22,359 nucleotides of DNA from the NCBI GenBank assembly GCA_026686805.1, contig GCA_026686805.1_3949.2; one strand, written 5' to 3'. Of this stretch, positions 474-18,271 are shown piece after piece. The stretch comes from a phage. Below the pieces are notes generated by a model that saw only the letters and a program-made list of their open reading frames with translations, searched no databases and was not told the DNA's origin. Both the position numbers and the translations under genes were made by a program. Position 1 is the stretch's first letter. Each line of letters opens with the position of its first letter.

Positions 474-500
474 AAATGAAAAAGGCTCCCGAAGGAGCCT
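474..500 (-). terminator. Intrinsic terminator hairpin with UUCG tetraloop (minus-strand RNA AGGCUCC-UUCG-GGAGCCU followed by UUUUCAUUU)
   Basis: Plus strand 483-500 is aggctcc-cgaa-ggagcct, a perfect 7-bp inverted repeat; on the minus-strand transcript a U-tract follows. Sits directly after the stop of the 512..976 gene. Confidence 0.6.
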
Positions 501-511
501 GTATCTTAACC

Positions 512-976
512 TTAACCGAGGACTTTAGCAAGGATATTTGCAGCCATCGAAGAAGCTTTTGCAGCAGCAACTACGCCAGCTTTGACAGTGCTATCCTTAA
601 TAGCAGATACCGTTGCAGCATCAGTAAAGAGATAAGTGATTGTTTTGGAACCACTTGTAAAGGAAAGCATAAGGGTAGTTTCCAGATTGAAAGAGCGATA
701 CGGAGCACCTTCTTTAACGATACCTTCAGCACCTAACTCTGAAGCCTTACCCATATCATAGATAGTCATCAGGTTTTCTTTGTGTGCAGTCGTTGAACCA
801 ACACCTTTTACGTGTTTTTTAACATTCAACAATGCACGATATTCACGAATGCTGCCATCAGCTTTTACATTAACAGCACGGAAAATTTTACCTTCAAAGT
901 TACCTTGAATCATTTTACGAACTACTTCAGATTTGTTTGCCGTATCGTCCAGTGCTACCGTAATGATATTGTTCAT
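512..976 (-). CDS. Hypothetical protein (154 aa from ATG; track ORF extends to 991 via a TTG)
   Basis: Track first codon at 991..989 is TTG. Internal ATG at 976..974 (MNNIITVALDD...) is preceded by GAGAGAAG. No recognisable motif. Confidence 0.55.
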   Translation of the reverse strand: MNNIITVALDDTANKSEVVRKMIQGNFEGKIFRAVNVKADGSIREYRALLNVKKHVKGVGSTTAHKENLMTIYDMGKASELGAEGIVKEGAPYRSFNLETTLMLSFTSGSKTITYLFTDAATVSAIKDSTVKAGVVAAAKASSMAANILAKVLG

Positions 977-987
977 AAGTTCTTCTC

Positions 988-1683
988 TCAATGTTTAACT
1001 AACATGGTTTTAATGTGTGGAAGGATTCTGTTTACCTTCTGAACATTCTTCTCTGTGTCTTCTATAAAACATACTATATTAAAGTAAGGCAGAATGCAAG
1101 ACTGAATCATCCTCACTTTCAAACTTTCTGCACTTATAGAGTTAGTTCCAAAACCACGCATAAAAAGCATGTAATCATGCTCTATGTTATGCCTTAAAAA
1201 CATCTCAGTAGGTATTCTCTGAGATTCACCTCTCGCTGTCAAGAGTCCAATGGCAGCATGATTAGCAATTGCATCAATAATACTAAAAACATACGTTGGC
1301 TTTGCTCTTACAGAGTCAAGAAGATTAGTGTACTGTGAGAATGACCCATCAGTCAATTCCGTTGAGCAATCTTCGTGATTAAAATTTGTAAGAACGCCAT
1401 CAATATCTGCTAAGATGAGGTTACCTTTTTCTACAAGGTCTTTATTGACTATGACTAAACTATCACGCCTTACACCTATAGTTTGTCCAGTCTCTTTGTC
1501 CACAACGTTCACAATTGGTTCTGATGTGTGGAACTCTTCCAGTGAACATACAACTTCTCTTGCAGTGTCTTCAAAATCCCTACACTGTTCTGGAGTCCAT
1601 ACACAGGAATCAAGACCTAACTCATGAGGATGTAAGTCGTAAGCATGACACAGTACTTCATCAGACTTTTTTAATTTTTTCAT
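988..1683 (-). CDS. HAD-superfamily hydrolase/phosphatase-like protein (231 aa)
   Basis: ATG start confirmed. Motif ILADIDGVLTNF resembles HAD motif I (DxDGxL), followed by a conserved T (LLTARG), a K and an acidic motif (FIEDTEKN). Substrate not inferable. Overlaps the upstream gene by 23 nt. Confidence 0.5.
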   Translation of the reverse strand: MKKLKKSDEVLCHAYDLHPHELGLDSCVWTPEQCRDFEDTAREVVCSLEEFHTSEPIVNVVDKETGQTIGVRRDSLVIVNKDLVEKGNLILADIDGVLTNFNHEDCSTELTDGSFSQYTNLLDSVRAKPTYVFSIIDAIANHAAIGLLTARGESQRIPTEMFLRHNIEHDYMLFMRGFGTNSISAESLKVRMIQSCILPYFNIVCFIEDTEKNVQKVNRILPHIKTMLVKH

Positions 1684-2209
1684 GGTTTACCTTAGAAATG
1701 TTTGTTGCAAATTCACATTGAGCGATAACTTTCATATTGTTATAGACATCTTGAGAGTATTTCTTAGCTTTAGGGATTTTGTACGAATACCCAGCATTAT
1801 ATGATGCTAAAACTTTTTGTAAAGTCTTCTTTGACTTTGGCTGACCATGCACCTTTGTCCAAAACTCAAGTTCTTTGTGCGTTTCCTTTGCAGCATAGTC
1901 AAAGTCTTTTAAGAGTTTCTTTTTAGCCACATTAGGACTAATTTTGTTACGCTTTACAACAGTCTTCAAGTGATTCTGGAAAATACCATAATCATGTGTC
2001 TTTTTATTCTCTACCTTCAGACCTAACTCTGACTCTTGTAAGGCTATAGCAGCTAGAGTGATACCCCAACCTTTACCCATGTTATTCTCACCATACTGGT
2101 AAGCTTTTAACATGTTTACTTTTTGGCTAATTGATAGCTCTGGGCAGTCAACTGCATAAGATAAGTGTGCTGTAAACATTAAGCACAAACCTAGAATCAA
2201 TTTCTTCAT
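1661..2209 (-). CDS. Secreted lytic transglycosylase / lysozyme-like protein (SLT-domain-like) with N-terminal signal peptide
   Basis: ATG start confirmed. N-terminus MKKLILGLCLMFTAHLSYA looks like a Sec signal peptide. AIALQESELG and YGIFQ resemble the catalytic-Glu E-S motif and the G-L-M-Q motif of SLT-family transglycosylases. AGGAG Shine-Dalgarno upstream. Confidence 0.55.
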   Translation of the reverse strand: MKKLILGLCLMFTAHLSYAVDCPELSISQKVNMLKAYQYGENNMGKGWGITLAAIALQESELGLKVENKKTHDYGIFQNHLKTVVKRNKISPNVAKKKLLKDFDYAAKETHKELEFWTKVHGQPKSKKTLQKVLASYNAGYSYKIPKAKKYSQDVYNNMKVIAQCEFATNISKVNHEKIKKV

Positions 2210-2240
2210 TGGTTCTCCTGTTTAGTTTATCGTGACAACA

Positions 2241-2275
2241 ATTATACAGCACTCTGCACAAAATACAAATAAAAA
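2241..2275 (-). promoter_or_regulatory. Candidate sigma70-like promoter (-10 TATAAT, weak -35 TTTGTA/TTGTAT) upstream of the transglycosylase-like gene
   Basis: Minus strand reads ...tatttgtattttgtgcagagtgctgTATAATtgttgtcacg...; perfect TATAAT at 2246..2241, about 30 nt upstream of the ATG at 2209, immediately after the 2268..2293 terminator. Confidence 0.35.
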
Positions 2276-2293
2276 AAGGCCGCCGAAGCAGCC
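2268..2293 (-). terminator. Intrinsic terminator hairpin with UUCG tetraloop (minus RNA GGCUGC-UUCG-GCGGCC, one G-U wobble, then UUUUUUUAUU)
   Basis: Plus 2278-2293 is ggccgc-cgaa-gcagcc, preceded on plus by a 7-nt A-run (U-tract on the minus transcript). The hairpin pairs better as minus-strand RNA than plus. Directly downstream of rIIB. Confidence 0.6.
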
Positions 2294-2310
2294 TTTTAAG
2301 AAATTACTTA

Positions 2311-3420
2311 TTAGATTTCACGTTTACGTTGAGAGATGAGTTCACCAGCAGTGCCAACGATGACATGCAAAGCTTCAGTCTTACCGTCCCATGCTTTCAG
2401 CACTTTACGTTGATTATCAACGATTGCTGCAACTTCATAACGAGAGGAACGCATCTTCATATCGTTGTAATCAGTTGGAACAGATACAACATCTCGTGGA
2501 TGGACACGAACCTTCAGGATTGTATCACCTGAGAAGCAACGAACATAATCCCAAGCACCAACATGAAGACCTTGAGAGCAAGTTACGTTACGGTTATTAT
2601 CAACCATCCAACGTGGCATTTCTACAATGTTACCCAAATCATTAGGCACTTTGTAGGTGTGAGAGTCAACCAGCTTGCCTTCACGAGTAGATACTTTCTT
2701 CCAACCAATGATGTAGCCTTCTTCATCAATTTCAACATCAAGGTGAGATACAAAGCCCCAAAGTTGTTCTACAGAGTCTTTAGATGGGTTTTCCATCAGT
2801 TTTTCGAAGAACATCACAAGGCGTTCAAAACCTTTATCTCCAGTCTTCATCATGTGAAGAATACGGTCAACCAGAGTAGAACGCATCTCAACAGCACCGT
2901 AGAATAGCTTGTCACCTTTGATTGTGATAGCACCCTGAGTGAAGTTTTCGATAGACTTACGAATATTCATCAGTTCAAAGGCTTTCTTGAACTCACCTTT
3001 CACAACATGAACTACAATCTCTTGATAGTTCGGATGAGTAGACTCAACAATTTCAGATTCTGAACCGTAAGTCATAATTACAGAGTCACCAGTAATCATG
3101 TACTCAATTTTGTCATCTTTCTGCATAGCTTCATGCAGTTTATTTACTGGAGCTTTCTGTACAGCGTCTTTAACGACCTTTTCAACTTGTTTGCCAGATT
3201 TCTTTTTAAAAGTTTTAGCAACTTGTTTCAAAGTCTTCGTAGCTGGTGTAGAAGTCGCCTTCTTATTACCTTTTAAGGTTGCTTCATGACGCTCTACAGC
3301 ACGACCAACTGAACGGGTTGAAGTATTAAATTTCTGTGCAATAGCTGTTTTAGTCAGCTTACCCTCTTTAACCAGTTTGTAAATTTCTGCGTCAATCTGT
3401 GCTTTAGTTTTAGTAGTCAT
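2311..3420 (-). CDS. rIIB: rIIB protein (369 aa)
   Basis: ATG start confirmed. C-terminal half matches the T4 rIIB pattern as I recall it (...VRVHPRDVVSVPTDYNDMKMR..., ...VTCSQGLHV...). Lies directly downstream of the rIIA-like gene in the same orientation, as in T4. Confidence 0.85.
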   Translation of the reverse strand: MTTKTKAQIDAEIYKLVKEGKLTKTAIAQKFNTSTRSVGRAVERHEATLKGNKKATSTPATKTLKQVAKTFKKKSGKQVEKVVKDAVQKAPVNKLHEAMQKDDKIEYMITGDSVIMTYGSESEIVESTHPNYQEIVVHVVKGEFKKAFELMNIRKSIENFTQGAITIKGDKLFYGAVEMRSTLVDRILHMMKTGDKGFERLVMFFEKLMENPSKDSVEQLWGFVSHLDVEIDEEGYIIGWKKVSTREGKLVDSHTYKVPNDLGNIVEMPRWMVDNNRNVTCSQGLHVGAWDYVRCFSGDTILKVRVHPRDVVSVPTDYNDMKMRSSRYEVAAIVDNQRKVLKAWDGKTEALHVIVGTAGELISQRKREI

Positions 3421-3468
3421 CTTATTACTCTCTCTCTCTTGTTAGTTAATAAATCATTTTGTAAGGCT

Positions 3469-3498
3469 ATTCTAAGGGGCTTTGAAGCCCCTTGTCAA
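3469..3498 (-). promoter_or_regulatory. Candidate sigma70-like promoter (TTGACA-N18-TAGAAT) in the rIIA-rIIB intergenic region
   Basis: Minus strand: gtTTGACAaggggcttcaaagccccTTAGAATagcc; -35 at 3498..3493, -10 at 3474..3469, predicted start about 40 nt upstream of the rIIB ATG. The spacer is itself a GC hairpin (separate feature). Confidence 0.35.
3475..3492 (-). other. GC-rich hairpin AGGGGC-UUCAAA-GCCCCU with no U-tract (RNA structural element between rIIA and rIIB)
   Basis: Perfect 6-bp inverted repeat aggggc/gcccct with a 6-nt loop. Not followed by a U-run on either strand, so not called a terminator. Confidence 0.45.
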
Positions 3499-3503
3499 AC
3501 ACT

Positions 3504-5870
3504 TTAATCGTAAACTGTTGTACCTTCTGGAACACATTTTACATCAAAGCCTAAGAACTTACTCACTTCGATGGGTGACACTTTATTCCAATCTAAATGA
3601 GAAAGCAAGAAGTTTTCTTGTTTTCTTTTTGAAAGGTATTTTGTCACCTTAATGACCATACGGTCACCAGCTTTCTTAATTTTCTTGTAAAGCTTTGTAT
3701 CATTGTCAAGACAGTCTTTCAAAGTTTTCAATACACTAATAGTATAAGTGTATGCAAATGGTGCAGCAACGTATTGGATTTTACCGAACATAGCCTCTAC
3801 AGCCTCTTCATTACCTTCTAGGAAGATAGTTTTGCTAGTATCTCGTGAATAGCAATAGCCACGAGAAATCTTCCTGTTATTGAACGTAAAGTTTCTGGCA
3901 ATAATCCAACTGCTTGTAAGGTCGAGGACACCATTCATATAGATACGTGTCATATATCTGTTATGATTAATCCAATGAACATCAGTTAAGCTGTCGTTCA
4001 AGAGTTTCTCATCTACTTCAATCCAGTCTTCTGGTATCTTTTTCCAATTTGCTTTTCGGAAAACATAGACTGTCTTCCCTATAACATTAGCAACTGACTT
4101 GGCTACATCTTCTGGAGATGAGCAAAAACATTCACCATCAACTGTGTCACCAACTGCCTTAATGTAAAGCTGAGGTTCTTCAATTGTATCAAAGTCCTCT
4201 GAAACCTCTTTATAGGAAGCTACACCTTCTGCTGGAACAGCTTTCCAGAGTTTTACAACACCTCTTACAGCTTCTTTACGCTGATAGTGATGTTCCTTAT
4301 CAGACATCTTAACAATCTTTAACAAGCTTTTATCAAGTTTGTGTAGATTGATTAAATCATCTAACTCTTTTTCAGTCGAGAATACAAACACAATACCATT
4401 ATATCTGTGAAACAGACTTGACTCACTGGCGTAGTCTCGACATGCACCACGCAGAATCTGATTGCGGCCTACAGTCTTCTCAGTACCATTTTTATTGCGA
4501 CGGTCATTAATCACGAACAAAAACTGTTCAATTTGGCTTTTACGCATTGCGCCAAAGATATTGAACATACTTGCCTCTTGAGTGTAGGAAAGTGCTGTTG
4601 CACGAATCTTACTCTCTAAAGAGTTGAACTTGACATAAGCAACTGGGTTATAAAGATAATCTACTTTAGGGATATTGTTCCCGTTCCTATCAACCTTAAT
4701 ATTGCCTTTACCGTCACGTTCATAAATGACTGAGCCGTCTTCTGCGTAGATAATTCCACGACGAATGTTTAACAATTCTTCTTCCAGAGAATCAAGCTTA
4801 ACGCCTCCCCACTCTAGCTTTGGACACACAGCATTAAACATCTCTCGTGAGTTCAAACGTAGCTCAGCATAAGCCTGTGCAGCATCCATGAGTGTAGGTT
4901 GACTATTAACTTTCTTGATAACATCCTTTGTAATTGCTTCAGTTATCTTTTTGGTAGCCTCGATGATAACATTTTTTGTCGTGTCATTCATCTGCAATGC
5001 TTCACGAGAAGCTGCAATAGCAACTGAACCAATAGGCATGTAGATGTTTACAAGGTCTACGCTCCTACGGAAAAATTCTGGCAATACTTTGAAGAAGTCA
5101 TCACCAAGTAATGCTTCCATATTAACAGGGTAGGCAATGTTACCCATCACCACATTAAACTCTGTCCTGTTACCACTAGAACGCCAGCTTTGCTTATGAA
5201 TCATGGCATCATAAACACCTTCTTCACGGGCAATGACGTTCATATCTGCTAATACATCGTCGTACTCAATATTACTTTCTGGTTTTACAGTGAAGTATGA
5301 GTACACATTCCCAGCTTCTTCAAAGAACTTTGAGATACGGTGGTCAGCAACTGCCACACGTACAGCTAAACCATTAGGTTCTTTTGTTGGGTTAGTTGTC
5401 AGCTTAGTTACTTGAGGGATACCATTCTCAAGATAAACAGAGTACTTATTAACAACACCGTCAACATAGCTAGATACTGTGAATGACTGAGCAATTGCAA
5501 ATGGTGACTTTGAGCCGATACCCATTGCACCAATGTAGTCATTAGAGTCATTCTTCGTAGAAGCTCCATAGTTTAGGTACAAACTCATAACTTTATCATG
5601 AGTCAATCCAGTTCCAAAATCACGAACTTCAAAGTAAGGCTCAAAACGAGTAGGTAAATGCACATGGAACGGGATGTTCTCTTTTCCAGCTTCTTTCTGA
5701 GCATCTACTGCGTTACATGACAGTTCACGAATCACTGCCCTTTCTTTAAAGGTATACACACCAGAACTCAAAAGGCTGAACATCTCAGGTGTCATTGTAA
5801 TCTGTGCTTGAGACGTCTCTAAAGAAGTTGAACTCTTAATCACTTCTGCGTGGTCATTTACCATGCGCAT
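3504..5870 (-). CDS. rIIA: rIIA protein (788 aa) with N-terminal GHKL/Bergerat-fold ATPase-like N-box
   Basis: ATG start confirmed, with AGAGGAAAG Shine-Dalgarno. ELSCNAVDA near residue 50 fits the GHKL N-box (E-x-x-x-N-A-x-D-A). Size and position immediately upstream of rIIB fit rIIA. Confidence 0.8.
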   Translation of the reverse strand: MRMVNDHAEVIKSSTSLETSQAQITMTPEMFSLLSSGVYTFKERAVIRELSCNAVDAQKEAGKENIPFHVHLPTRFEPYFEVRDFGTGLTHDKVMSLYLNYGASTKNDSNDYIGAMGIGSKSPFAIAQSFTVSSYVDGVVNKYSVYLENGIPQVTKLTTNPTKEPNGLAVRVAVADHRISKFFEEAGNVYSYFTVKPESNIEYDDVLADMNVIAREEGVYDAMIHKQSWRSSGNRTEFNVVMGNIAYPVNMEALLGDDFFKVLPEFFRRSVDLVNIYMPIGSVAIAASREALQMNDTTKNVIIEATKKITEAITKDVIKKVNSQPTLMDAAQAYAELRLNSREMFNAVCPKLEWGGVKLDSLEEELLNIRRGIIYAEDGSVIYERDGKGNIKVDRNGNNIPKVDYLYNPVAYVKFNSLESKIRATALSYTQEASMFNIFGAMRKSQIEQFLFVINDRRNKNGTEKTVGRNQILRGACRDYASESSLFHRYNGIVFVFSTEKELDDLINLHKLDKSLLKIVKMSDKEHHYQRKEAVRGVVKLWKAVPAEGVASYKEVSEDFDTIEEPQLYIKAVGDTVDGECFCSSPEDVAKSVANVIGKTVYVFRKANWKKIPEDWIEVDEKLLNDSLTDVHWINHNRYMTRIYMNGVLDLTSSWIIARNFTFNNRKISRGYCYSRDTSKTIFLEGNEEAVEAMFGKIQYVAAPFAYTYTISVLKTLKDCLDNDTKLYKKIKKAGDRMVIKVTKYLSKRKQENFLLSHLDWNKVSPIEVSKFLGFDVKCVPEGTTVYD

Positions 5871-5898
5871 AATACTTTCCTCTTAGTTTACTGTTAAA

Positions 5899-6075
5899 TT
5901 ACTTATTAAACATTTTACCAGAACCACCACACATAGGGCAACAACCTGCTCTTGTATACCCTTCTCCGTTACAGTAGTCACACTTCTTGTGTTCTGCAAA
6001 GTACTTACAAAGAAGATAAACAAGGACTGCTACACTACCAAGTGACAGTAAAATTTCTACCCAATATGCTTGCAT
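5899..6075 (-). CDS. Small membrane protein with C-terminal DnaJ-type zinc-finger repeats (58 aa); not in ORF track
   Basis: Hand-translated: MQAYWVEILLSLGSVAVLVYLLCKYFAEHKKCDYCNGEGYTRAGCCPMCGGSGKMFNK. One hydrophobic helix, then two CxxCxGxG units (CDYCNGEG, CPMCGGSG). GAGGTGAG Shine-Dalgarno 4-11 nt upstream of the ATG. Overlaps the 3' end of the 6057..6392 ORF by 19 nt in another frame. Confidence 0.45.
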   Translation of the reverse strand: MQAYWVEILLSLGSVAVLVYLLCKYFAEHKKCDYCNGEGYTRAGCCPMCGGSGKMFNK

Positions 6076-6392
6076 GACTCACCTCTCATGTTTTTGTAAA
6101 GGATAAAGCTTCTGTCATGGACGATACTTGTAGATACTGCAAAGTTACTTTCAAGCATCTGTTTGTTTGGATTGTAGAAGCTTTCTTTAAACTCGTCAAG
6201 CGCAAATTGGTGATTGTCTGGAAGACCTTTTACACAAACCTTTATTGTGATTGCTGCTGCAATCTTGCCAGTCAGTTCTTCTTTAGCTGCTACTAAAATT
6301 TTGTTAAGGAACTTTTTACCATCTTCAGGTTTCTTAATGTTCTCCCAACGCTCTTCTAAGACAATGTTGATGTTCATCTCTTTGATTTTCAT
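6057..6392 (-). CDS. Hypothetical protein (111 aa)
   Basis: ATG start confirmed. First gene after the 6404..6431 terminator and candidate promoter. No recognisable motif. Confidence 0.5.
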   Translation of the reverse strand: MKIKEMNINIVLEERWENIKKPEDGKKFLNKILVAAKEELTGKIAAAITIKVCVKGLPDNHQFALDEFKESFYNPNKQMLESNFAVSTSIVHDRSFILYKNMRGESCKHIG

Positions 6393-6403
6393 AATCTTCT
6401 CCA

Positions 6404-6431
6404 GAAATTAAAAAGGCTCCCGTAGGAGCCT
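6404..6431 (-). terminator. Intrinsic terminator hairpin (minus RNA AGGCUCC-UACG-GGAGCCU followed by UUUUUAAUUUC)
   Basis: Plus 6414-6431 is aggctcc-cgta-ggagcct, the same stem as the 483-500 hairpin with a different tetraloop. U-tract follows on the minus transcript. Immediately downstream of the NAMPT-like gene. Confidence 0.6.
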
Positions 6432-6434
6432 CTT

Positions 6435-6462
6435 ATCATATACTTTTAAAGCTGCTTGTCAA
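6435..6462 (-). promoter_or_regulatory. Candidate sigma70-like promoter (TTGACA-N16-TATGAT) overlapping the 3' end of the NAMPT-like gene
   Basis: Minus strand: aatatTGACAagcagctttaaaagtaTATGATaagaggctcc; -35 at 6462..6457, -10 at 6440..6435. The transcript would begin inside the terminator hairpin. Confidence 0.3.
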
Positions 6463-8247: not shown

Positions 8248-8263
8248 GGGGCTTTTAAGCCCC
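8248..8263 (-). other. GC-rich hairpin GGGGC-UUAAAA-GCCCC between the PRPS-like and NAMPT-like genes; no clean U-tract
   Basis: Perfect 5-bp inverted repeat ggggc/gcccc with a 6-nt loop. Downstream minus RNA is AUUUUGAGAGAG (the Shine-Dalgarno of the NAMPT-like gene). Same design as the rIIA/rIIB hairpin. Confidence 0.45.
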
Positions 8264-9444: not shown

Positions 9445-9952
9445 TATAAGTTGCCCTATAAACTGTCTCGAACTTCAACAGGAGAGATATTGCCAAAGCT
9501 GTATAGTTGTTGTCAAGCACGTCTGGCATATTATTTTTGATATATTTCTCTTGCTCTTCATAGGTCATCTTAGGAATACTTAGGAGGCTATCTCCTTGCT
9601 TCTGGTTATCAGCTTTAGTTTGGATAAACCAGTTCGCACAGTGATGTTCACCACCTTTTGTAACAGGTTTGTGGTGGCCTAGTGTAAATGTTTGCTTACC
9701 CGTATACCTGCAAAGATTGTTCAGTGTTGCAATGGTGTTCTTCACAACACACCATTCATACAGGTTATCTATTGTGTAGTGTGGGTAATAACGGACAAGC
9801 GCTCTTTCACGGAAGTTATCACGATTCCAAAGAACCATGTGATTAGAATTTGAAGGGTCATATTTGTGGGAGTCTATAAATTCTTGACGCTCATCAAAGC
9901 TGAGTCTTAGAACTGACATTGCAACCGAACGTTTCAGGTTTGACAGATACAT
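9437..9952 (-). CDS. Hypothetical protein (171 aa), possible HNH-like nuclease motif
   Basis: ATG start confirmed. GHHKPVTKGGEHHCANW resembles the HH...GG...N core of HNH nucleases, but the final His is not evident. First gene after the 9962..9990 terminator. Confidence 0.5.
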   Translation of the reverse strand: MYLSNLKRSVAMSVLRLSFDERQEFIDSHKYDPSNSNHMVLWNRDNFRERALVRYYPHYTIDNLYEWCVVKNTIATLNNLCRYTGKQTFTLGHHKPVTKGGEHHCANWFIQTKADNQKQGDSLLSIPKMTYEEQEKYIKNNMPDVLDNNYTALAISLLLKFETVYRATYNG

Positions 9953-9961
9953 TTTACCTCC

Positions 9962-9990
9962 AAAATAAAAAGGGAACCTTTACAGTTCCC
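9962..9990 (-). terminator. Intrinsic terminator hairpin (minus RNA GGGAAC-loop-GUUCCC followed by UUUUUAUUUUGG)
   Basis: Plus 9972-9990 is gggaac-ctttaca-gttccc (6-bp stem), preceded on plus by aaaataaaaa. Sits between the stop of the 10004..10324 gene and the 9952 ATG. Confidence 0.55.
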
Positions 9991-10003
9991 CTATAGTATC
10001 TGT

Positions 10004-10326: not shown

Positions 10327-10593
10327 TTATTTAGCCTTCTTATTGCGTTTACGGTTACGAGCTTTCTTGGCTGCTCGTTTAATAGCTGCTGCACCAGACG
10401 GACGGTGGGCTTGTTTCTTACCACCTTTGCCACGGCCTACATAGATGTAAGGTTGCTGTTCAATTTGGCTTGTAAGAACTTGTGCAACTGCTGAAGCATC
10501 TACACCAACCTGCTTTCCAGTCATAGAAATGATTGCTGCTGCTTTTGCCAGTGCCTTCAAGAAGCCAGCTTTCATATTACCTAAAATTCCCAT
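10327..10593 (-). CDS. Small basic protein (88 aa from second ATG) with Lys/Arg-rich C-terminal tail
   Basis: Track start ATG at 10608 lacks a Shine-Dalgarno; ATG at 10593 (MGILGNMKAG...) has GAGAGG 5 nt upstream. C-terminus GRGKGGKKQAHRPSGAAAIKRAAKKARNRKRNKKAK is strongly basic. Confidence 0.5.
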   Translation of the reverse strand: MGILGNMKAGFLKALAKAAAIISMTGKQVGVDASAVAQVLTSQIEQQPYIYVGRGKGGKKQAHRPSGAAAIKRAAKKARNRKRNKKAK

Positions 10594-10621
10594 TTTAGCC
10601 TCTCTCATTAAAGTTTAATAC

Positions 10622-10638
10622 AGAACTTATGAAGTTCT
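10622..10638. other. Perfect 7-bp inverted repeat agaactt-atg-aagttct in the nrdG-downstream intergenic region
   Basis: Read directly from the sequence. Only a weak U-rich run follows on the minus transcript, so function (attenuator, processing site or binding site) is unknown. Confidence 0.4.
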
Positions 10639-10688
10639 TCTTCAGTGATACCAATTGGAGTTATACCTTAGTCCATTTGCCAGAATAA

Positions 10689-11174
10689 TCACTCTGCTCT
10701 CCACTGACAATCACCTTGCCATCCGTACTCTTTTCTCCAGAGGTTTTGGTTATCTGAACCACGATACGGTTTAACTGTTGGTTTAGATGAATCATACTTA
10801 CCATCAATCACCACGTCAACATATTTCATCACATCTAAGTGGATTTTTTCGTGCAGTTGAAAACCTGTCCAAAGCCATATAGACTTTTCTGGATAAACAG
10901 TTTTAATACGCTTACATATGTTGGTAACCTCTTGAATATTTCTATCATCCAGAGGCTCTCCACCGAGTATTGACAACCCACTGATGGCATCATCATCCAT
11001 TAACTTAATGATACCGTAGAGGTTTGCATAAGTAAACTCTTTACCAGCATTAAACTTCCAAGACTCCCTGTTAAAGCAGCCTTCGCAGTGATGCTTACAA
11101 CCAGCTACGAAGAGGCTTACACGAACCCCTTCACCATTAGCTGTGTCAAATGGCCTAATCTCCATGTAATTCAT
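10689..11174 (-). CDS. nrdG: Anaerobic ribonucleotide reductase activating protein (radical-SAM activase), 161 aa
   Basis: ATG start confirmed, with GAGGT Shine-Dalgarno. CKHHCEGC is a CX3CX2C radical-SAM cluster motif near the N-terminus. Size and position near nrdD fit NrdG. Confidence 0.8.
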   Translation of the reverse strand: MNYMEIRPFDTANGEGVRVSLFVAGCKHHCEGCFNRESWKFNAGKEFTYANLYGIIKLMDDDAISGLSILGGEPLDDRNIQEVTNICKRIKTVYPEKSIWLWTGFQLHEKIHLDVMKYVDVVIDGKYDSSKPTVKPYRGSDNQNLWRKEYGWQGDCQWRAE

Positions 11175-11232
11175 CTAGTTACCTCACCAATAAATATAAA
11201 CGTTCTTTAACCTTTTCTTCGAATTGTTTTAC

Positions 11233-11628: not shown

Positions 11629-11825
11629 AATTTCACCTTAGTTGGTAATGTACTGAATGCTATAGCTAATCCTAAAAATGGTTTGAAGCATGGCCATAAA
11701 TCCATCTGACCATGATATGAGAAACTCCATTGTGGGTCTGAAAAACCCCATACCATAACGCTAACACCAAAGAAGAAGATTAGAATGTGGAGTATGTATA
11801 TCAACGCTTTTGATATCTTAAACAT
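11625..11825 (-). CDS. Small hydrophobic membrane protein (66 aa)
   Basis: ATG start confirmed. Two hydrophobic stretches (ALIYILHILIFFFGVSVMVWGF and FLGLAIAFSTL). Translationally coupled to the downstream gene. Confidence 0.5.
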   Translation of the reverse strand: MFKISKALIYILHILIFFFGVSVMVWGFSDPQWSFSYHGQMDLWPCFKPFLGLAIAFSTLPTKVKL

Positions 11826-11965
11826 TTTAACTTATCTCTCAATTCACAATAAGAGAGTCCTAAAAAGAACCCTAGTAAGACAGAACCTATGAACAACCCA
11901 ATAATACTATCTGTCATATCTAACATCCAATAAAAAAGGTGATGTAAGCCTATCAAGACCCACAT
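11801..11965 (-). CDS. Possible small hydrophobic ORF (54 aa); not in track
   Basis: Hand-translated: MWVLIGLHHLFYWMLDMTDSIIGLFIGSVLLGFFLGLSYCELRDKLKCLRYQKR. AAGGTG abuts the ATG with no spacer, so the true start is uncertain (TTG at codon 4 or a later ATG possible). Overlaps the next gene by 25 nt. Confidence 0.25.
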   Translation of the reverse strand: MWVLIGLHHLFYWMLDMTDSIIGLFIGSVLLGFFLGLSYCELRDKLKCLRYQKR

Positions 11966-11979
11966 CACCTTGTCAAGTT

Positions 11980-14124
11980 TTACATAGAGACTCTATCACG
12001 AATCTCAGCGATTTTTGCATCGTTCATTCGGGATTCACCTTTAATCTTAGTCCATCCAAGATACCCACACACCCTGTTAATCACAGAGATATCATGTGAA
12101 TGGCAAACCTCGCATTCTTCAACATCAGCCTTTGGTCTGTTACCACAATGTTCACAGATTGCTAAGTCAAAGTTAAGCCCCTGATAGAAACCTTTCAACA
12201 TCCCTCTTGTGATACAACTTTTAAGTGCTGTTAAGTTTTCTGGGTTAGCTACCCTGACATACTGGATTCTCCCACCTCTACAGATATGGAAGAATGGCTC
12301 TTCTAAGTCCTGCTTCTCAAATGGTGAGATGTCTGCTGCAACATTCATATGGAAACTGTTTGTAAAGTATTCCTTATCAGAAACACCTTTGATAACGCCA
12401 AACATATCTCTGAACTGTTTTAGCTGAGTTCCGCAAAGTGATTCTGCTGGAGTACCATAGACGGCATATAAGAAGCCATCTTCATTTTTAAACTCTTCAG
12501 TTTTCATGTTGATGTATGCCAGAACATCGTATGCAAAACTACAGCTTCCAACTTCATGAAGTCGTTTACCTTCAGCAAGAACAGATAGCTCATCAAGCGC
12601 AGTAACCCCAAAAGAAGCTGTGAAGGACTTCACAATATCCCAACCAACCTTGTCAGTAGGTTTCTTAGTTCCTTTGTACAGACCACCTTGTGTGAATGCA
12701 AGAGGGTTAGAACTTGCTGGCATATTAGCAATCATTTCGTAGCGTTTCTTGTGGAAGCTGCGAATCATCTCTAGGTACTTATCAAGCTCTTTCCAGAAAT
12801 CTAAACCACTCTCTCTAGAATACTGGTAAATCATCGGTAAGTTCAAAGATACAGCACCAATGTTAGCACGACCAACATAGAACTCTTCCCCATCCTCATT
12901 AAGATATGGAGATAAGAAGGCTCTGCAACCCATCGGTGAAATTACCTTGCCAGAACGCTCAAAAGCCTCTGCTACAGCACCATGACCAGATACACTTAAG
13001 AAGTCTGGATACATTGCTTTAGAGCAACACTCAATAGCTTTACTGTACAGGTGACCTTGACAGATATTTTCATCATGTCTCTTCTGGTCATAAATATAAA
13101 CCAGTTTAGGAAATACAACAGGCTTCTTGCTCTTACCTTGTCCATTCATACGAACATCTAGGAGAGTACTTGCAATCATGTATTGTAATCGGTTGTCTTC
13201 ATTAGACATGTCTGAGTCAAGTAACCCAAATGTTAAAGTTGTGAATGCAAAATCCCCACGACTACAAGGTACAGTGTTTAGTTTCATTTCAAGTGACTGG
13301 AAACCTTGAGTTAATTCAATCTGTAACTGCTCCATGACATAATTATGGTAATGTTCTTTAGGAATACCATAAGATGTTGCTTTCTCAGCATGATAGCGTA
13401 GAGACTTCTTAGCATACGGTACAAGTACCTTGTCAATCTCTGCTAAAGTAAAGCCACCAAATTGCTGTGCAGTTGCTGAAAGAACTACGTCACCAATAAC
13501 TTGTAAGGCCGACAGCACAGACTTCGGTTCACAATATTCGATGCCAGACATTTCAAAGCCACCTTTCAGTACTTTACCAATGTCAAACAGACAACAGTTA
13601 ATACCACCAAAAATTAGGTCTCTTAAGTCATGGATGTAGATAAACCCTTTTTCAATGGCTTCAAGTTCCTCTGGTGTTAAATGGTACTGTTTAAAGATTT
13701 CTTTAGTCAGATAACCACGAATAATTGAACCTTTTGTAGAAATTAAACTGCTGTCAAAGTTAGCATTCTCTCTGTCACCTAAGAAGAGTGTATCTTTGGT
13801 CTTCTGGTAAAGTTCATCCCAATTTTGAGCAACTTCTTTACGGTAATTTCTATATGTTGAGTAAGACTCATAAATCTCGTGATTGACTTCTGCCAAAGCA
13901 CCCTCAACAATACTGTGAATATCATTTACTGAAATGAGCAAATTATTCTGTTTAGTAGATTTTACCAGAATCCTCATAAATGCTGACTCAAGAGCTTGGG
14001 TAACATCTGGTGGGAGTTCTTTATAACCAACCCTATTAGCTGACTTTGTGACTGCTGCTAAAACTTTTTTGATATCAGGTTCTTCGAGTGAGCCATTCTT
14101 TTTAATAATCTGTACTTTGTTCAT
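11980..14124 (-). CDS. nrdD: Anaerobic ribonucleoside-triphosphate reductase, class III (714 aa)
   Basis: ATG start confirmed. C-terminal glycyl-radical motif RVCGYLG, preceded by a Cys cluster (CEHCGN ... CEVCHSH). Reading frame is contiguous, so no intron is evident. Confidence 0.9.
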   Translation of the reverse strand: MNKVQIIKKNGSLEEPDIKKVLAAVTKSANRVGYKELPPDVTQALESAFMRILVKSTKQNNLLISVNDIHSIVEGALAEVNHEIYESYSTYRNYRKEVAQNWDELYQKTKDTLFLGDRENANFDSSLISTKGSIIRGYLTKEIFKQYHLTPEELEAIEKGFIYIHDLRDLIFGGINCCLFDIGKVLKGGFEMSGIEYCEPKSVLSALQVIGDVVLSATAQQFGGFTLAEIDKVLVPYAKKSLRYHAEKATSYGIPKEHYHNYVMEQLQIELTQGFQSLEMKLNTVPCSRGDFAFTTLTFGLLDSDMSNEDNRLQYMIASTLLDVRMNGQGKSKKPVVFPKLVYIYDQKRHDENICQGHLYSKAIECCSKAMYPDFLSVSGHGAVAEAFERSGKVISPMGCRAFLSPYLNEDGEEFYVGRANIGAVSLNLPMIYQYSRESGLDFWKELDKYLEMIRSFHKKRYEMIANMPASSNPLAFTQGGLYKGTKKPTDKVGWDIVKSFTASFGVTALDELSVLAEGKRLHEVGSCSFAYDVLAYINMKTEEFKNEDGFLYAVYGTPAESLCGTQLKQFRDMFGVIKGVSDKEYFTNSFHMNVAADISPFEKQDLEEPFFHICRGGRIQYVRVANPENLTALKSCITRGMLKGFYQGLNFDLAICEHCGNRPKADVEECEVCHSHDISVINRVCGYLGWTKIKGESRMNDAKIAEIRDRVSM

Positions 14125-14142
14125 TATTGCCCCTTTACATGC

Positions 14143-14164
14143 TAAAAAGGTCTCCGAAGAGACC
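14143..14164 (-). terminator. Intrinsic terminator hairpin with UUCG tetraloop (minus RNA GGUCUC-UUCG-GAGACC followed by UUUUUAGC)
   Basis: Plus 14149-14164 is ggtctc-cgaa-gagacc, preceded on plus by an A-run. Lies between the 68-aa gene and the nrdD start. Confidence 0.55.
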
Positions 14165-14172
14165 CTTTCATT

Positions 14173-14379
14173 TTAAATCTTTTTAGAAAACTTCGCAAAG
14201 AGTTCTCTTAGTTTTTCAGTGATACCTAACTGTATCTCTAATATTTCGAAGATAACCCATAGTAACATGGCTCCAAACAATGAACCTTGTTCAAAGTCAG
14301 TAAATAGGTTAACAATCAGCATACCAATCACAATCGCTGGTGCATCAACAACCAAACCTTCCCAAATGCGTTTAAGCAT
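14173..14379 (-). CDS. Small hydrophobic membrane protein (68 aa)
   Basis: ATG start confirmed. Hydrophobic stretches VVDAPAIVIGMLIVNLF and FGAMLLWVIFEIL. 8-nt overlap with the redoxin gene upstream. Confidence 0.5.
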   Translation of the reverse strand: MLKRIWEGLVVDAPAIVIGMLIVNLFTDFEQGSLFGAMLLWVIFEILEIQLGITEKLRELFAKFSKKI

Positions 14380-14614
14380 TATTCACCTCTGCCATAAAAT
14401 TCTGTAGCGTCCCAACAGGTTTTAGGTTTTGTCCATCAGTTTTCATGATGAATGGCATCTGACGAACTGGCATCTGTGCAATATCCATCAGGTCTGATAG
14501 TTCATAATCCTGCCCTAACATTCTCACAACATGGTCAATACCACGAGCTTTTGCAAAATTCTTTGCAGTCTCACACTGAGGGCATCCAGTTTTGGAGTAA
14601 ATTACATAAGTCAT
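14372..14614 (-). CDS. Glutaredoxin-like small redoxin (NrdH/NrdC-type), 80 aa
   Basis: ATG start confirmed. Active-site CPQC near the N-terminus (YSKTGCPQCETAK). Size and position directly after nrdB (TAATG overlap) fit an RNR electron donor. Confidence 0.7.
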   Translation of the reverse strand: MTYVIYSKTGCPQCETAKNFAKARGIDHVVRMLGQDYELSDLMDIAQMPVRQMPFIMKTDGQNLKPVGTLQNFMAEVNNA

Positions 14615-15687
14615 TAAGGAACCTCTAAAAATCCACTATTCAAATCATCTACAACAGTATTCAACAGGTACGCACCGTTCTGTTGCTCCTGATTAGCATT
14701 CTGCTCTTTATCAATTTCCATCTTCTTAATCATGTACTTCAAAGGTGGTTCTTTAGGAGCTACAAAATCTCTGGGAATGCCAAACATATCATACAGTGGG
14801 GCAGCATTATAGTAAACCCACTCATGAAGAAGCTTTGTATTTAAGCCAACTACAGCACGTCCTTCGGAGAAGATATAATACGACCATTTCTCTTCACTTT
14901 CAACTACTTCATCTAAGATTACTTTAATCTCTGGAAGAATTTGTTGAAAAGCTTTCTGCCACTCATCATCTCTTAAAGTTTCTTTTAAAACTTCAATATC
15001 AATTTTAGTGTGAAGGATTTCATCAAGCATAATTTTCTGGACAGCTTGAGCAATACCCTGAAATTTATCTTGAGCATCAAGTGCAAAAGTACATGCAAAG
15101 GATGCCATAAAAGATATACCTTCAAGTGCAGTCACTGCAAATAGACCTTTTAGAATCACTTTATGGAAGTGTAAAGGGTCTTTGTCCAGAAGTGAATCAC
15201 GGACATAACTCAGCCGATAGTTTATACCTTCATCCAGTAATTCTTCAAGAACACGATTCACAGTTTTTAATCGGTCTTGCACAGCAACATTCTGGTTAAT
15301 CTCATCTAAGATTGTTTCAGGGTTTTTAATACATTGTCTTACAATCTCTGAGTAAGTAAGAGCATGTAGGTTTTCAATCTCAGACTGCTTCATAATTGCA
15401 GTTGCATAGATGTCATCAGAGATAAAGGGTGCAAAGGCAAATGCCAAGCTCTTAGCAACTTGAGTGTCTGCTTCCCATTGCCACTTAAGAATCTCAAGCA
15501 TTACACCTGACATTGATGCTGGGACACTCTCAAAATCAAGACGTGATTGTTCAAAAGGGAACTCATCTTCTGACCAATCTTGTGCTTTTTGTTGTTTATA
15601 AAGCTCAAAGATTTTTGGGTAGTGCTTATTAAGTGAGTCAAAAGTTTTTCTCTCACCACCTAAAAAGATTGGGTGCTGGTTAATCAT
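14614..15687 (-). CDS. nrdB: Ribonucleotide reductase class Ia small (beta) subunit, 357 aa from ATG
   Basis: Track ORF begins at a TTG (15747); ATG at 15687 (MINQHPIFLGG...) forms an ATGA overlap with the upstream small gene and has AAGGAG upstream. Di-iron ligand and tyrosyl-radical motifs present: EIENLHALTY (E-x-x-H...Y) and ALEGISFMASFA...DEILH. Confidence 0.85.
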   Translation of the reverse strand: MINQHPIFLGGERKTFDSLNKHYPKIFELYKQQKAQDWSEDEFPFEQSRLDFESVPASMSGVMLEILKWQWEADTQVAKSLAFAFAPFISDDIYATAIMKQSEIENLHALTYSEIVRQCIKNPETILDEINQNVAVQDRLKTVNRVLEELLDEGINYRLSYVRDSLLDKDPLHFHKVILKGLFAVTALEGISFMASFACTFALDAQDKFQGIAQAVQKIMLDEILHTKIDIEVLKETLRDDEWQKAFQQILPEIKVILDEVVESEEKWSYYIFSEGRAVVGLNTKLLHEWVYYNAAPLYDMFGIPRDFVAPKEPPLKYMIKKMEIDKEQNANQEQQNGAYLLNTVVDDLNSGFLEVP

Positions 15688-15941
15688 AGCGTGATTTCTC
15701 CTTTCTTTATCATTTCTAAGGCTTGTTTTCTGTCTAAAACTTCCCAATTTTCTTTGTTAAACATCTCATAAGGTCTTGCATAGATTTTACCATCTGCTGT
15801 AGAGATGTAAGAAGCTCCAGTGACCCATAAGTCATTATTCTGCTTTATCATGATACCTGTGCTGCTCACATAGTACAATGCTTTGCGGGGTTTGTAGAGC
15901 AAGTATATTGGTCGCTCATGTTTTTCTATTAAATCTTTCAT
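15684..15941 (-). CDS. Hypothetical protein between nrdA and nrdB (85 aa from internal ATG)
   Basis: Track ORF (15684..16025) would overlap the nrdA 3' end by 29 nt and span a perfect hairpin. ATG at 15941 (MKDLIEKHERP...) has GGAGAG 3-4 nt upstream and lies after the hairpin. Confidence 0.5.
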   Translation of the reverse strand: MKDLIEKHERPIYLLYKPRKALYYVSSTGIMIKQNNDLWVTGASYISTADGKIYARPYEMFNKENWEVLDRKQALEMIKKGEITL

Positions 15942-15963
15942 GGTCTCTCCAAAGTTATTTTTA

Positions 15964-15983
15964 GAGGGTCTTTTACGACCCTC
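15964..15983 (-). other. Perfect 7-bp hairpin gagggtc-ttttac-gaccctc just downstream of the nrdA stop
   Basis: Read directly from the sequence. No strong U-tract follows on the minus RNA, so this is a structural or processing element rather than a terminator. Confidence 0.45.
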
Positions 15984-15996
15984 ATAGTTGTTAAAA

Positions 15997-18231
15997 CTAA
16001 ACACCACATCCCTCGCAATAAGCATCTTGCAGTGCAGATTTACCTACACCAATGCGACTGTTAAGGTAGTACATGGTTTTCATACCTACAGAGTTGGCAT
16101 AAATCATGTACTTCAAAGCTTGAGCCAATGATACCTTCTTAGACTTTGCATAGTCAACATAGAAGTCTGAAGAGATAGCTTGACCAGTGAACTTTTGAAC
16201 AATTGCATAACAATCAATCAGGTCAAAGGTGTCAATACCCCAAGCAATTTCATATACATACTTCAACTCTTCATAATCTGGAACAATAAACAGTACGTTA
16301 CCAGTTGCAGACTTTTTAGTTAAAATAAAGTCACGAATTGGGTACAAGCCATTTGTCGTATTAGTTGCTAGTGAAGAACTCTCATTAGGCATGTAAGCTT
16401 CTAATACAGAGTTTCGGATTCCACCATTTTCTTTGATACGCTGTGCTAAGTCATCCCAATCATATCGTAGTTTTGCATCATGCTTTTCATCAATCTTCTT
16501 GTTAGCTGTCTTTGGAGGAACCCAGCCTTCAGGATACTTAGTGAACTTCATGTACTCTGGAACGCCACGCTCTTTAGCAAGTCTCAGAGAGGCTTCATGT
16601 AGATAGTAAGAGTGCATCTCTGCAAGTTCATGAAGCTTCGTTTTACCTGCTCGTGAAGAGTAGTTCACGTAGTTCTTCGCAAGGTAATGAGCCACATTTG
16701 TAAGGCCAATCCCAACAGAACGACGCTTCTGAACATGGTTACGCATCGACGGATACGGATAATCCATAAGGTCAATAACGGAGTCAACCATTGCAAGAGC
16801 ATAATAAGCAACGTCAGCGTATTCATCTTCTGAAATTCTCCCTGCAACCAAACTAGCTAGGAAGCAAAGAGCCACCTCACCATCCTCTTTCACAGCATCG
16901 TCTCTGTAAAGGTCTGTCTCTTTCTCAAAACCATATACTGGCAACACAATTTCCATACAAAGATTTGACATCTTCAATGGTTCTTTAAATGGTGTATGTG
17001 TGTTTGCATTGTTAGTGAAGAATGGGTACACACGACCTGTAGCATAACGCTGTTGAATAAACAGCTTAGCAATTTCACGAGCCTTTACCCGTCTATGCTT
17101 AACACCTGAATGTACTGCATGACCAACTGCCATAGCAAACTCATCAGCAGATGCTGTGTAGAACATGTCATAGAGTTTTGGTGCATCTTTGTAAGAGAAT
17201 AGCAACCAATCTGTATCATACTGAACACACTGCCAGAAATAATCGTTTGTACCGAATGAGTAGTCCATCTCATTAATGCGTTTAGAAGGAACCGTTGTAG
17301 GGTGCTTCAAACGCAATAAATCTTCAATCTGCGGGTCTAGAGCAGTGTAGAAGTTATTAGCTGAACCACCACGACTCTTCTGTTTGTTTGCCTCTACAGA
17401 TGAACGTACAAGCTTGTAATAAGGTAGCTTACCCATGTGCTCAATCGTATTTTGACGGATACCATCACCAATAGTGCGAGTCTCCATCAGCATACCAATA
17501 CCAGCTTGCTTTGTAGTCATATCATAAGCAACCTTTGCAGCAATACCAAGTGATTCAGCAGTATCATTTGCCTTAATCAAACAGCATGACGCATAGCCTG
17601 ATTTAGTTGCTCTTAAACCGTTTAAATAAGGCGTAGGAGCGTTAATCTTCAGGTCAGATAGGTAAGTGTACAGCTTGATAACATCTTGCAGTCTACGGTG
17701 CTTTGGTTGCTTCTCAAAGGCTTTCATAGCCATACCCATAAACATAAATTGTGGTGACTCAAAAAGTCTTCCAGTTTTAATATCACGGATACCATACTTG
17801 TCTCTGAACTGTTTCAATACTGCATAGCCGTAAGAGATATCTTTTGAGTGTACGATGTAACCTTGCAGATATTCAAGCTCTTCCTGTGAATAATCCATCT
17901 TCTCCCAAAGTCCTGCTCTCTCCATATTTTTAACGAAGGTAATCAGCGTAGGAACCTTAGTAAAGCCTCCAAAGGCTTCTTTGTAGATAATCCCCAAAAG
18001 TAGCCGTCCAGCCATATCTGAGTACTCTTGAGTTTGTTTATCAACACAAACATCAATCATGGCTTGGTGCATCTCTTTTGTAGTGCAACCCTCGTAGACA
18101 CGCTTCATGGCTTCCATAGTGACTTCTGACCAGATAATTCCACGCTTGTCTGCCCATGATGCCCACTTATTCAGTCTTTCTGGGTCAAAGCTTACTACTG
18201 TACCGTTTGATTTTTTAATTGTCTTAATCAT
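15997..18231 (-). CDS. nrdA: Ribonucleotide reductase class Ia large (alpha) subunit, 744 aa
   Basis: ATG start confirmed. Catalytic-site motif SNLCMEI and C-terminal redox Cys pair (CEGCGV). Size and adjacency to nrdB fit NrdA. Contiguous frame, no intron or intein evident. Confidence 0.9.
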   Translation of the reverse strand: MIKTIKKSNGTVVSFDPERLNKWASWADKRGIIWSEVTMEAMKRVYEGCTTKEMHQAMIDVCVDKQTQEYSDMAGRLLLGIIYKEAFGGFTKVPTLITFVKNMERAGLWEKMDYSQEELEYLQGYIVHSKDISYGYAVLKQFRDKYGIRDIKTGRLFESPQFMFMGMAMKAFEKQPKHRRLQDVIKLYTYLSDLKINAPTPYLNGLRATKSGYASCCLIKANDTAESLGIAAKVAYDMTTKQAGIGMLMETRTIGDGIRQNTIEHMGKLPYYKLVRSSVEANKQKSRGGSANNFYTALDPQIEDLLRLKHPTTVPSKRINEMDYSFGTNDYFWQCVQYDTDWLLFSYKDAPKLYDMFYTASADEFAMAVGHAVHSGVKHRRVKAREIAKLFIQQRYATGRVYPFFTNNANTHTPFKEPLKMSNLCMEIVLPVYGFEKETDLYRDDAVKEDGEVALCFLASLVAGRISEDEYADVAYYALAMVDSVIDLMDYPYPSMRNHVQKRRSVGIGLTNVAHYLAKNYVNYSSRAGKTKLHELAEMHSYYLHEASLRLAKERGVPEYMKFTKYPEGWVPPKTANKKIDEKHDAKLRYDWDDLAQRIKENGGIRNSVLEAYMPNESSSLATNTTNGLYPIRDFILTKKSATGNVLFIVPDYEELKYVYEIAWGIDTFDLIDCYAIVQKFTGQAISSDFYVDYAKSKKVSLAQALKYMIYANSVGMKTMYYLNSRIGVGKSALQDAYCEGCGV

Positions 18232-18246
18232 TTTTAAATCCTACAG

Positions 18247-18271
18247 ATGAAAAGAGCCTCCGAAGAGGCTC
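18247..18271 (-). terminator. Intrinsic terminator hairpin with UUCG tetraloop (minus RNA GAGCCUC-UUCG-GAGGCUC followed by UUUUCAUCU)
   Basis: Plus 18254-18271 is gagcctc-cgaa-gaggctc, preceded on plus by an A-run. Lies between the 110-aa gene and the nrdA start. Confidence 0.6.

Follow-up and report, generated by a model that had tools for sequence, protein, structure and literature searches.

Introduction

Hairpins capped by the cUUCGg tetraloop were discovered as a class in the mRNA of bacteriophage T4 (Tuerk et al. 1988, as described in PMC4371310 and PMC8948821). CUUCGG hairpins are said to be frequent between the genes of many phages, and those of T4 have been associated with reverse-transcription termination, mRNA stability and nucleation of folding (PMC4371310, PMC8948821). 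In phage Felix O1, a set of terminators was predicted by TransTerm, with a check by MFOLD (Whichard et al. 2010, PMC3185647). A further related system is that of the PeSLs (promoter-early stem-loops) of T4-type phages, which combine promoter and terminator, have stems that differ from lineage to lineage and bring about the shuffling of modules (Arbiol et al. 2010; Comeau et al. 2014). In this work we analysed five tetraloop hairpins encoded on the minus strand of a phage DNA stretch of 22,359 nucleotides (NCBI GenBank assembly GCA_026686805.1, contig GCA_026686805.1_3949.2), the whole of which is hereafter called the window. Every gene of the window lies on the minus strand; gene identities were taken from KhF2, an annotated relative. 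Our analysis indicates that the five elements are very probably Rho-independent (intrinsic) terminators of early minus-strand transcripts of a Felix O1-like phage.

Five cUNCGg hairpins followed by U-runs

Direct reading of the minus strand located the five hairpins at the coordinates given in an earlier note on this DNA. Site 1 (483-500; AGGCUCC-UUCG-GGAGCCU, then U5 at 479-483) precedes the Shine-Dalgarno (SD) sequence AGGAG (468-472) and the ATG (457-459) of the i-spanin gene. Site 2 (core 2278-2293; GGCUGC-UUCG-GCGGCC with one G.U pair, then U7 at 2271-2277) is located downstream of rIIB, and its stem can be extended to 10 bp through A-U pairs between the A-tract and the U-tract (AAAAGGCUGC-UUCG-GCGGCCUUUU, 2274-2297). 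Site 3 (6411-6434, core 6414-6431; AGGCUCC-UACG-GGAGCCU, then U5 at 6410-6414) lies downstream of nadV. Site 4 (14143-14170, core 14149-14164; GGUCUC-UUCG-GAGACC, then U5 at 14144-14148) and site 5 (18253-18272, core 18254-18271; GAGCCUC-UUCG-GAGGCUC, then U4 at 18250-18253) are found upstream of nrdD and nrdA, respectively.

The combination of a GC-rich stem, a UUCG or UACG loop and a U-tract described by the earlier note was thus present at all five sites, with U-runs (U5, U7, U5, U5 and U4 for sites 1-5) that begin at the stem end. Stems comprised 6-8 GC-rich pairs, or 10-12 pairs with the A-U extension, and loops were of 4 nt. At every site the loop was closed by C-G, as in the stable cUNCGg motif, in the form C(UUCG)G in four cases and C(UACG)G in one. 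Sites 1 and 3 do have the identical stem previously pointed out, and their likeness extends to a common repeat of 34 nt (91% identity; repeat family D8) that runs from the hairpin via the U-run to the SD sequence. The distance from stem to start codon was 23, 21, 24 and 22 nt at sites 1, 3, 4 and 5, and site 2 has a 68-nt spacer.

A search for cUNCGg hairpins of at least 5 bp with at least 3 GC pairs revealed five on the minus strand of the window and none on the plus strand, as compared with a mean of 0.024 and a maximum of 1 in 1000 dinucleotide-preserving shuffles. All five are intergenic, and intergenic sequence in the window totals 984 nt. Chance does not account for the five hairpins. 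The earlier note had allowed that the folding energies might be too weak for termination; the minimum free energy (MFE) in a 41-nt context lay between -14.0 and -16.6 kcal/mol (z-scores from -3.9 to -4.9), a stability that no shuffle out of 200 reached, and the bare hairpins gave values of -12.1 to -14.2 kcal/mol. In addition, a generic consensus terminator scan placed four of the five (sites 1, 2, 3 and 5) among the strongest minus-strand matches, site 4 being matched on the plus strand only. A scan of the whole window against Rfam gave no match at the curated gathering score.

Relation to described terminators

Four of the five hairpins had already been published as predicted terminators. 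In Table 2 of the Felix O1 study (PMC3185647), t5, t2, t116 and t111 correspond to sites 1, 2, 4 and 5, and t124 and t104 to two other hairpins of the window, at 9972-9991 and 21454-21480. The Felix O1 sequences ggctccttcgggagcc, ggctgcttcggcggcc, ggtctcttcggagacc and gagcctcttcggaggctc, each followed by a T-run, are essentially the same elements as sites 1, 2, 4 and 5; the difference is that the authors of PMC3185647 make no comment on the common UNCG tetraloop. In the GenBank record of KhF2, Rho-independent terminators are annotated at sites 1, 2 and 4, the equivalent of site 1 under the label 'early terminator TE', and also at the hairpin 11936-11971 and at one near 21460. Site 3 is present neither in the Felix O1 table (PMC3185647) nor in the KhF2 annotation, and appears to be the only unreported element of the five. 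The class is generic, and the finding is correct but ordinary: as terminators, the value of these elements is that of routine annotation, with one unannotated site (site 3) added, and they mark likely steps in how Felix O1-like phages, which serve in typing and biocontrol of Salmonella and E. coli, express their early genes.

The hairpins of the window resemble those of T4 in being short C(UUCG)G-capped stems, mostly intergenic, of a large virulent coliphage. On the other hand, they belong to the Ounavirinae and not to a T4-like phage, and here every copy has a U-run and looks like a canonical terminator. A second likeness was observed with the gap between genes VIII and III of the Ff phages (f1, M13 and fd), whose hairpin we take to be an experimentally characterised terminator. 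The f1 element, AAAGGCUCC-UUUU-GGAGCCUUU followed by a U-run, has the identical 6-bp stem GGCUCC/GGAGCC with flanking A and U runs, followed in ~20 nt by GGAG and the next gene's start codon. From stop codon to hairpin, U-run, SD sequence (GGAG) and start codon, the Ff gap has the same compact order as sites 1 and 3. In contrast with sites 1 and 3, the Ff loop is UUUU and not UNCG, the U-run is longer (U9), and the Inoviridae are unrelated.

The exact 22-mer of site 1, AGGCTCCTTCGGGAGCCTTTTT, was present in at least 120 stretches of IMG/VR contigs, and 64 of the 80 stretches fetched (L014-L093) had no other similarity to KhF2, with 33-63% GC and contigs of 4 to 225 kb. The occurrence of this 22-mer in unrelated contigs and of the same stem in f1 indicates that sites 1 and 3 have in their stem a terminator design that is generic and widespread and is not peculiar to this phage. 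Regarding the 'recurring family' of the earlier note, recurrence holds (five copies), but a phage-specific family does not, since the hairpins belong to the generic cUNCGg terminator class. Many of the IMG/VR copies of the 22-mer are followed by promoter-like sequence.

Conservation of the hairpins across the Ounavirinae

Orthologous gaps were taken from KhF2 (Felixounavirus), PC79-13 and SUSP1 (Suspvirus), KMM4 and Sf19 (Mooglevirus), and SPARTY and Fifi318 (Kolesnikvirus). At an overall identity of ~80%, the flanks of the hairpins drift and the hairpins remain: across the four genera the cUUCGg hairpin and the U-tract were kept and the stem sequence was swapped. The gap upstream of nrdA (site 5) carries the stem GAGCCUC in Felixounavirus, GGGGUCUC in Suspvirus and Mooglevirus and GGGACUC in Kolesnikvirus, always with a UUCG loop and a U-run. 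Sites 3 and 4 were unchanged in the three closer genera, site 3 being identical in six genomes. At site 2 the relatives have an A-U pair in place of the G.U pair of the window, and SUSP1 has UACG instead of UUCG as the loop of site 1, a change confined to the free N position. The swapping of stems with a kept cUUCGg loop and U-tract indicates that selection acts on RNA structure and on the U-tract, not on sequence. Consistent with this, among 48 related copies only the N position of the loop varied (U or A), and in a set of 16 distinct copies invariance or at least 90% conservation was observed for the loop, for the pair that closes it and for the U residues at the first four positions of the U-run (T20-T23).

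In Kolesnikvirus, one identical unit, (A)GGGACUC-UUCG-GAGUCCU-U4-5, was found at no fewer than nine gaps, including the orthologs of sites 1, 3 and 5; examples in SPARTY (L008; Fifi318 is L009) are located at 28624-28641, 24336-24353, 23053-23070, 18614-18631, 13552-13569, 10798-10815 and 9530-9545. These identical units point to homogenisation by gene conversion or recombination, or to strong convergent selection. All U-tract-bearing copies of the Kolesnikvirus loci, those of Fifi318 among them, were oriented with the genes, including two on the plus strand. The genome-wide count of the motif that the earlier note had proposed gave seven cUNCGg hairpins of four stem types in the complete genome of KhF2, all seven oriented with the local genes; the two that are encoded on the plus strand follow genes of that strand. 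Altogether, orientation with transcription, selection on structure and a conserved U-run point to the signature of an intrinsic terminator.

Predicted termination along the gene array

The proposal that the hairpins probably act as terminators is supported at the level of sequence by the GC stem, the tetraloop, the adjacent U-tract, the position after a stop codon and the gene orientation, and by the presence of four of the five among the published Felix O1 predictions. In the mechanism that we envisage, the host RNA polymerase would pass the stop codon and the nascent RNA would fold into a very stable C(UNCG)G-capped hairpin of 6-10 bp, after which the weak rU:dA hybrid of the U4-U7 run would free the transcript 7-9 nt past the stem. 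The 3'-end hairpin left on the released RNA might then shield the upstream message from 3'-to-5' exonucleases, and such a role of hairpins in 3' stability is plausible on general grounds. We infer termination, its efficiency and this stabilising effect from the sequences, their fold, their non-random occurrence, their strand bias and their conservation with stem swaps, all of which were observed directly.

The earlier note had also proposed that the hairpins partition the gene array into expression units. This would apply to site 2, which looks like one clear unit boundary, with U7, an A-tract and its own downstream TATAAT promoter, but not in the same way to sites 1, 3, 4 and 5, where the next start codon is 21-24 nt away. 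The latter sites are most likely leaky, because their U-runs break after 4-5 U residues and the next start codon is so close; they would act as partial terminators (attenuators) that lower expression stepwise along the array, most likely not as absolute stops. As there is no room for a downstream promoter at these four sites, they would be either leaky attenuators or terminators bypassed by overlapping promoters. A bidirectional-terminator function was discarded as irrelevant, the window having no plus-strand genes.

Several observations weigh against termination at these hairpins. U-runs of 4-5 residues are modest, that of site 5 being only U4, and strong termination before nrdA, nrdD and the spanin gene would be harmful, these essential genes starting 21-24 nt past the stems. 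The authors of PMC3185647 state that it 'is not known' whether transcription passes the Felix O1 terminators by read-through or by secondary promoters. The literature searched yielded no transcript 3'-end mapping or in vitro transcription data for any phage of the Ounavirinae and nothing usable in the way of RNA-seq, term-seq or start-site data for Felix O1-like phages; the timing table obtained by end-point reverse transcription-polymerase chain reaction in PMC3185647 is too coarse to place unit boundaries. It has to be noted, moreover, that the 98% pairing observed among the 16 distinct copies, with double changes at five of the seven stem pairs, is a partly circular figure, as the copies were gathered with a hairpin filter, and weight was put on the stem swaps at orthologous gaps.

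Predicted promoters and accessory modules next to the hairpins

Beyond the earlier note, what is new here is the presence of sigma70-like promoters directly before some hairpins and the insertion of accessory modules of relatives exactly at hairpins. All promoters described here are predictions, those of the window on the minus strand. Directly upstream of hairpin 3, a sigma70-like promoter, TTGACA-16-TATGAT (6435-6462; 11 of 12 matches), ends 3 nt before the stem, with p=0.0004 against a null made of all genome positions, a result taken as suggestive only. Both of its hexamers are kept in three genera and the spacer varies; the predicted start (~6428-6430) falls in the 5' arm of the stem. Weaker promoter-like sequences were found by the same comparison at hairpin 1 (TTGCTA-17-TAAGAT, 503-531, ending 2 nt before the stem; p ~0.05), where the -10 is TATGAT or TATTAT in other genera, and directly upstream of hairpin 4 (TTGCGA-17-TAAAAT, 14170-14198; p ~0.05), where Mooglevirus and SUSP1 have TTGAAA-17-TAATAT. 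The scan detected no promoter directly upstream of sites 2 and 5. In KhF2, a promoter accompanies each of the terminators at 9950, 12007 and 31804 (p <=0.003 against the same null), which at 12007 is TTGCCG-16-TATAAT, and the third AGGCUCC copy of this genome has TTGACA-17-TATCTT at the same offset as the site 3 promoter, also with p <=0.003. A start at the predicted +1 would remove part of the 5' arm and change the stability of the hairpin from -13.4 kcal/mol to between -9.2 and -5.4 kcal/mol, and locally initiated transcripts could escape the terminator.

Two further promoters have other arrangements. Downstream of site 2, before the gene at 1661-2209, the sigma70-like sequence TTGTAT-16-TATAAT (2241-2268) has a TATAAT hexamer that shows no variation among six genomes of the three closer genera, the whole promoter being TTGAAA-16-TATAAT in Mooglevirus. 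In the rIIA/rIIB gap, a conserved promoter, TTGACA-18-TAGAAT (3469-3498), holds the hairpin GGGGCU-UCAA-AGCCCC (3476-3491) in its spacer; the hexamers and the stem core are kept across three genera, the loop varies, and there is no U-tract.

Accessory genes gained, lost or replaced beside the hairpin units were observed in LNA1, GEP101, EcF-vB and SUSP1. LNA1 (L010) carries at site 1 a 1.7-kb module located between two exact copies of AGGCTCCTTCGGGAGCCTTTTT, at 483-500 and 2236-2253, which codes for a Dam-like adenine methyltransferase of the D12 class (Pfam E=3e-23) and a 270-aa unknown protein. The left copy retains the left flank of the window and the right copy its right flank, which suggests a crossover inside the hairpin unit. 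At site 2, a 2.2-kb module of three genes, with one weak N6-methylase match, is present in GEP101 (L013, 2296-4509) and EcF-vB (L011, 2295-4518); it is bounded upstream by another cUUCGg hairpin, AGGCUAC-UUCG-GUAGCCU-U6, and at 2298, where the 5' edge of hairpin 2 lies, homology to the window is lost. Inserts just 3' of site 3 are also present in EcF-vB and SUSP1.

Some of these arrangements resemble those of PeSL cassettes, with an intergenic sigma70-like promoter, a terminator stem-loop, an SD sequence and a start codon, lineage-specific stems, and a position at the junctions of accessory-gene indels. They differ from PeSLs in that the stem-loop stands mostly just after the -10 and not in the interval that separates it from the -35, the promoter is present at some sites only, the unit is of 22-34 nt vs ~100 bp, and the phage lineage is another. 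Site 3 and the rIIA/rIIB gap show the composite layout clearly, as does site 2 with its promoter downstream; the layout is weak at site 1 and site 4, and site 5 lacks it. A motif of ~100 bp repeated many times was not found, the longest common unit being the 34-nt repeat of sites 1 and 3.

Alternative explanations

The hairpins might be purely post-transcriptional elements that stop 3' exonucleases once a long polycistronic RNA has been processed by endonucleolytic cleavage, or that nucleate folding, with little or no termination. This would agree with the link of T4 CUUCGG hairpins to several processes (PMC4371310, PMC8948821), and also with the proximity of the downstream genes at four sites, which is too close for independent promoters. 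Nevertheless, the U-run directly 3' of the stem is as conserved as the loop, and an exonuclease barrier has no need of a U-run, because of which a role in stability only is disfavoured. In addition, both TransTerm and the consensus scan score the hairpins as terminators, and the GGCUCC/GGAGCC stem with its U-run also stands in the f1 gene VIII-gene III gap, presumably a functional terminator. We therefore regard an exclusively post-transcriptional role as improbable. Even less credit can be given to a binding or cleavage site for a specific factor, be it an RNase III processing site of the T7 early type, a translational operator or a RegB-like GGAG cleavage site. GGAG is indeed found in the 3' arms of sites 1, 3, 4 and 5, which also raised the thought of SD/anti-SD mimicry, and the identical Kolesnikvirus stem at nine or more sites could suggest sequence-specific recognition; however, GGAG is base-paired and is missing from site 2, and the stem sequence varies within the set of five sites and, at orthologous positions, from genus to genus. 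RNase III needs a double-stranded stem of roughly 20 bp, and processing by this enzyme was rejected on account of stems of 6-12 bp. A specific protein operator is unlikely given the differences among stems of sites and orthologs and the description of UUCG loops as binding no proteins (PMC4371310, PMC8948821).

A different possibility, which supplements termination and does not replace it, is that of PeSL-like composite cassettes; it is a lead and not a finding. The hairpin would stop upstream transcription, and a sigma70 promoter just upstream would restart it inside the 5' arm, a scheme that is conceivable though doubtful. The new transcript might bear a crippled hairpin and pass through, or bear a 5'-terminal stabilising stem, which is put forward with equal reserve; and the repeated units (hairpin, U-run and SD sequence), homogenised within a genus, might tentatively serve as homologous joints for the swapping of accessory modules such as DNA methyltransferases. 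The promoters directly upstream (strong and conserved at site 3, weak at sites 1 and 4, and found at three KhF2 terminators) are in line with this proposal, as are the lower stability of hairpins that start at the predicted +1, the hairpin within the promoter spacer of the rIIA/rIIB gap, which is one of the two most common PeSL layouts according to Arbiol et al. (2010), and the genus-specific and homogenised stems, as reported for PeSLs. Module indels of relatives fall exactly at the hairpins of sites 1 and 2, and inserts adjoin site 3; on the contrary, indels fall in intergenic DNA anyway, and homing endonucleases account for several of them. No promoter stands directly upstream of sites 2 and 5, the null was drawn from all genome positions whereas intergenic sequence is AT-rich and rich in stop codons, the -35 hexamers lie within coding sequence and their conservation may reflect the protein, and the similarity common to the copies covers 22-34 nt vs ~100 bp for PeSLs. 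The transcription starts on which the proposal relies are predicted ones. If true, it would carry the PeSL notion, in which regulatory cassettes serve as recombination joints, to phages other than the T4-like ones, and it would bear on a question raised in 2010, namely how transcription in Felix O1 gets past so many terminators.

Other hairpins and gene context

The inventory of hairpins in the earlier note, complete for the five UNCG sites, missed three with other loops (9972-9991, 11936-11971 and 21454-21480) and two without a good U-tract (3476-3491 and 8248-8263), all on the minus strand. The terminator-like hairpin at 9972-9991, GGGGAAC-UGUAAAG-GUUCCC followed by U5, has a non-UNCG loop and a z-score of -2.0, and is t124 of Felix O1. 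Downstream of nrdD, at 11936-11971, a 16-bp hairpin with a non-UNCG loop and U6 (MFE -23.5, z=-6.1) is an annotated terminator in KhF2. It is located in a 154-nt gap (11826-11979) in which it is preceded by TTGACA and a weaker second hairpin is present at 11854-11873; relatives have a homing endonuclease inserted at window positions 11981-11986. The terminator-like hairpin AAAGCCC...GGGGCUUU with a U-run (21454-21480), t104 of Felix O1 and also annotated in KhF2, occupies the gap between the open reading frame (ORF) 21498-22355 and the exonuclease gene (20395-21435). In the prs/nadV gap, the hairpin GGGGCU/AGCCCC (8248-8263) has the same stem as that at 3476-3491 and a weak U-run, AUUUUG; radambza and SUSP1 have an HNH homing endonuclease gene in this gap. 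Outside the region matching the window, KhF2 (L006) carries five copies of GGGGAAGGTCATTCCCTCCCC with conserved flanks, at 16846, 18005, 19563, 20428 and 23077. They are annotated as plus-strand terminators, yet they have no U-tract and stand among minus-strand genes, and probably represent a different repeated regulatory element.

The best matches of the whole window by megablast, which retrieved 285 phage records, were Felixounavirus genomes with ~96% identity over 100% of its length (LF82P3, MET-P1-301 and KhF1-3). By these matches and its gene content, the window is assigned to that part of the genome of a Felix O1-like myovirus (Felixounavirus) which holds early and nucleotide-metabolism genes. 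The order of its minus-strand genes is i-spanin, polynucleotide kinase, rIIB, rIIA, nadV, prs, nrdG, nrdD, glutaredoxin, nrdB, nrdA and exonuclease. Two gaps, 10609-10688 and 11175-11232, are unusually long and have no hairpins; relatives hold there 157-446 nt and 234-242 nt more coding sequence, respectively, and therefore the window appears to carry deletions or ORF remnants at these positions. In LNA1, a 744-nt insertion (L010, 15367-16112, equivalent to window positions 12924-12927) lies within nrdD, and the nrdD gene of the window has no such insertion. The inserted sequence gave a sub-threshold match to the group I intron family RF00028 (38.3 bits vs a gathering score of 50, E=7e-8), and nrdD is annotated as two pieces in several relatives.

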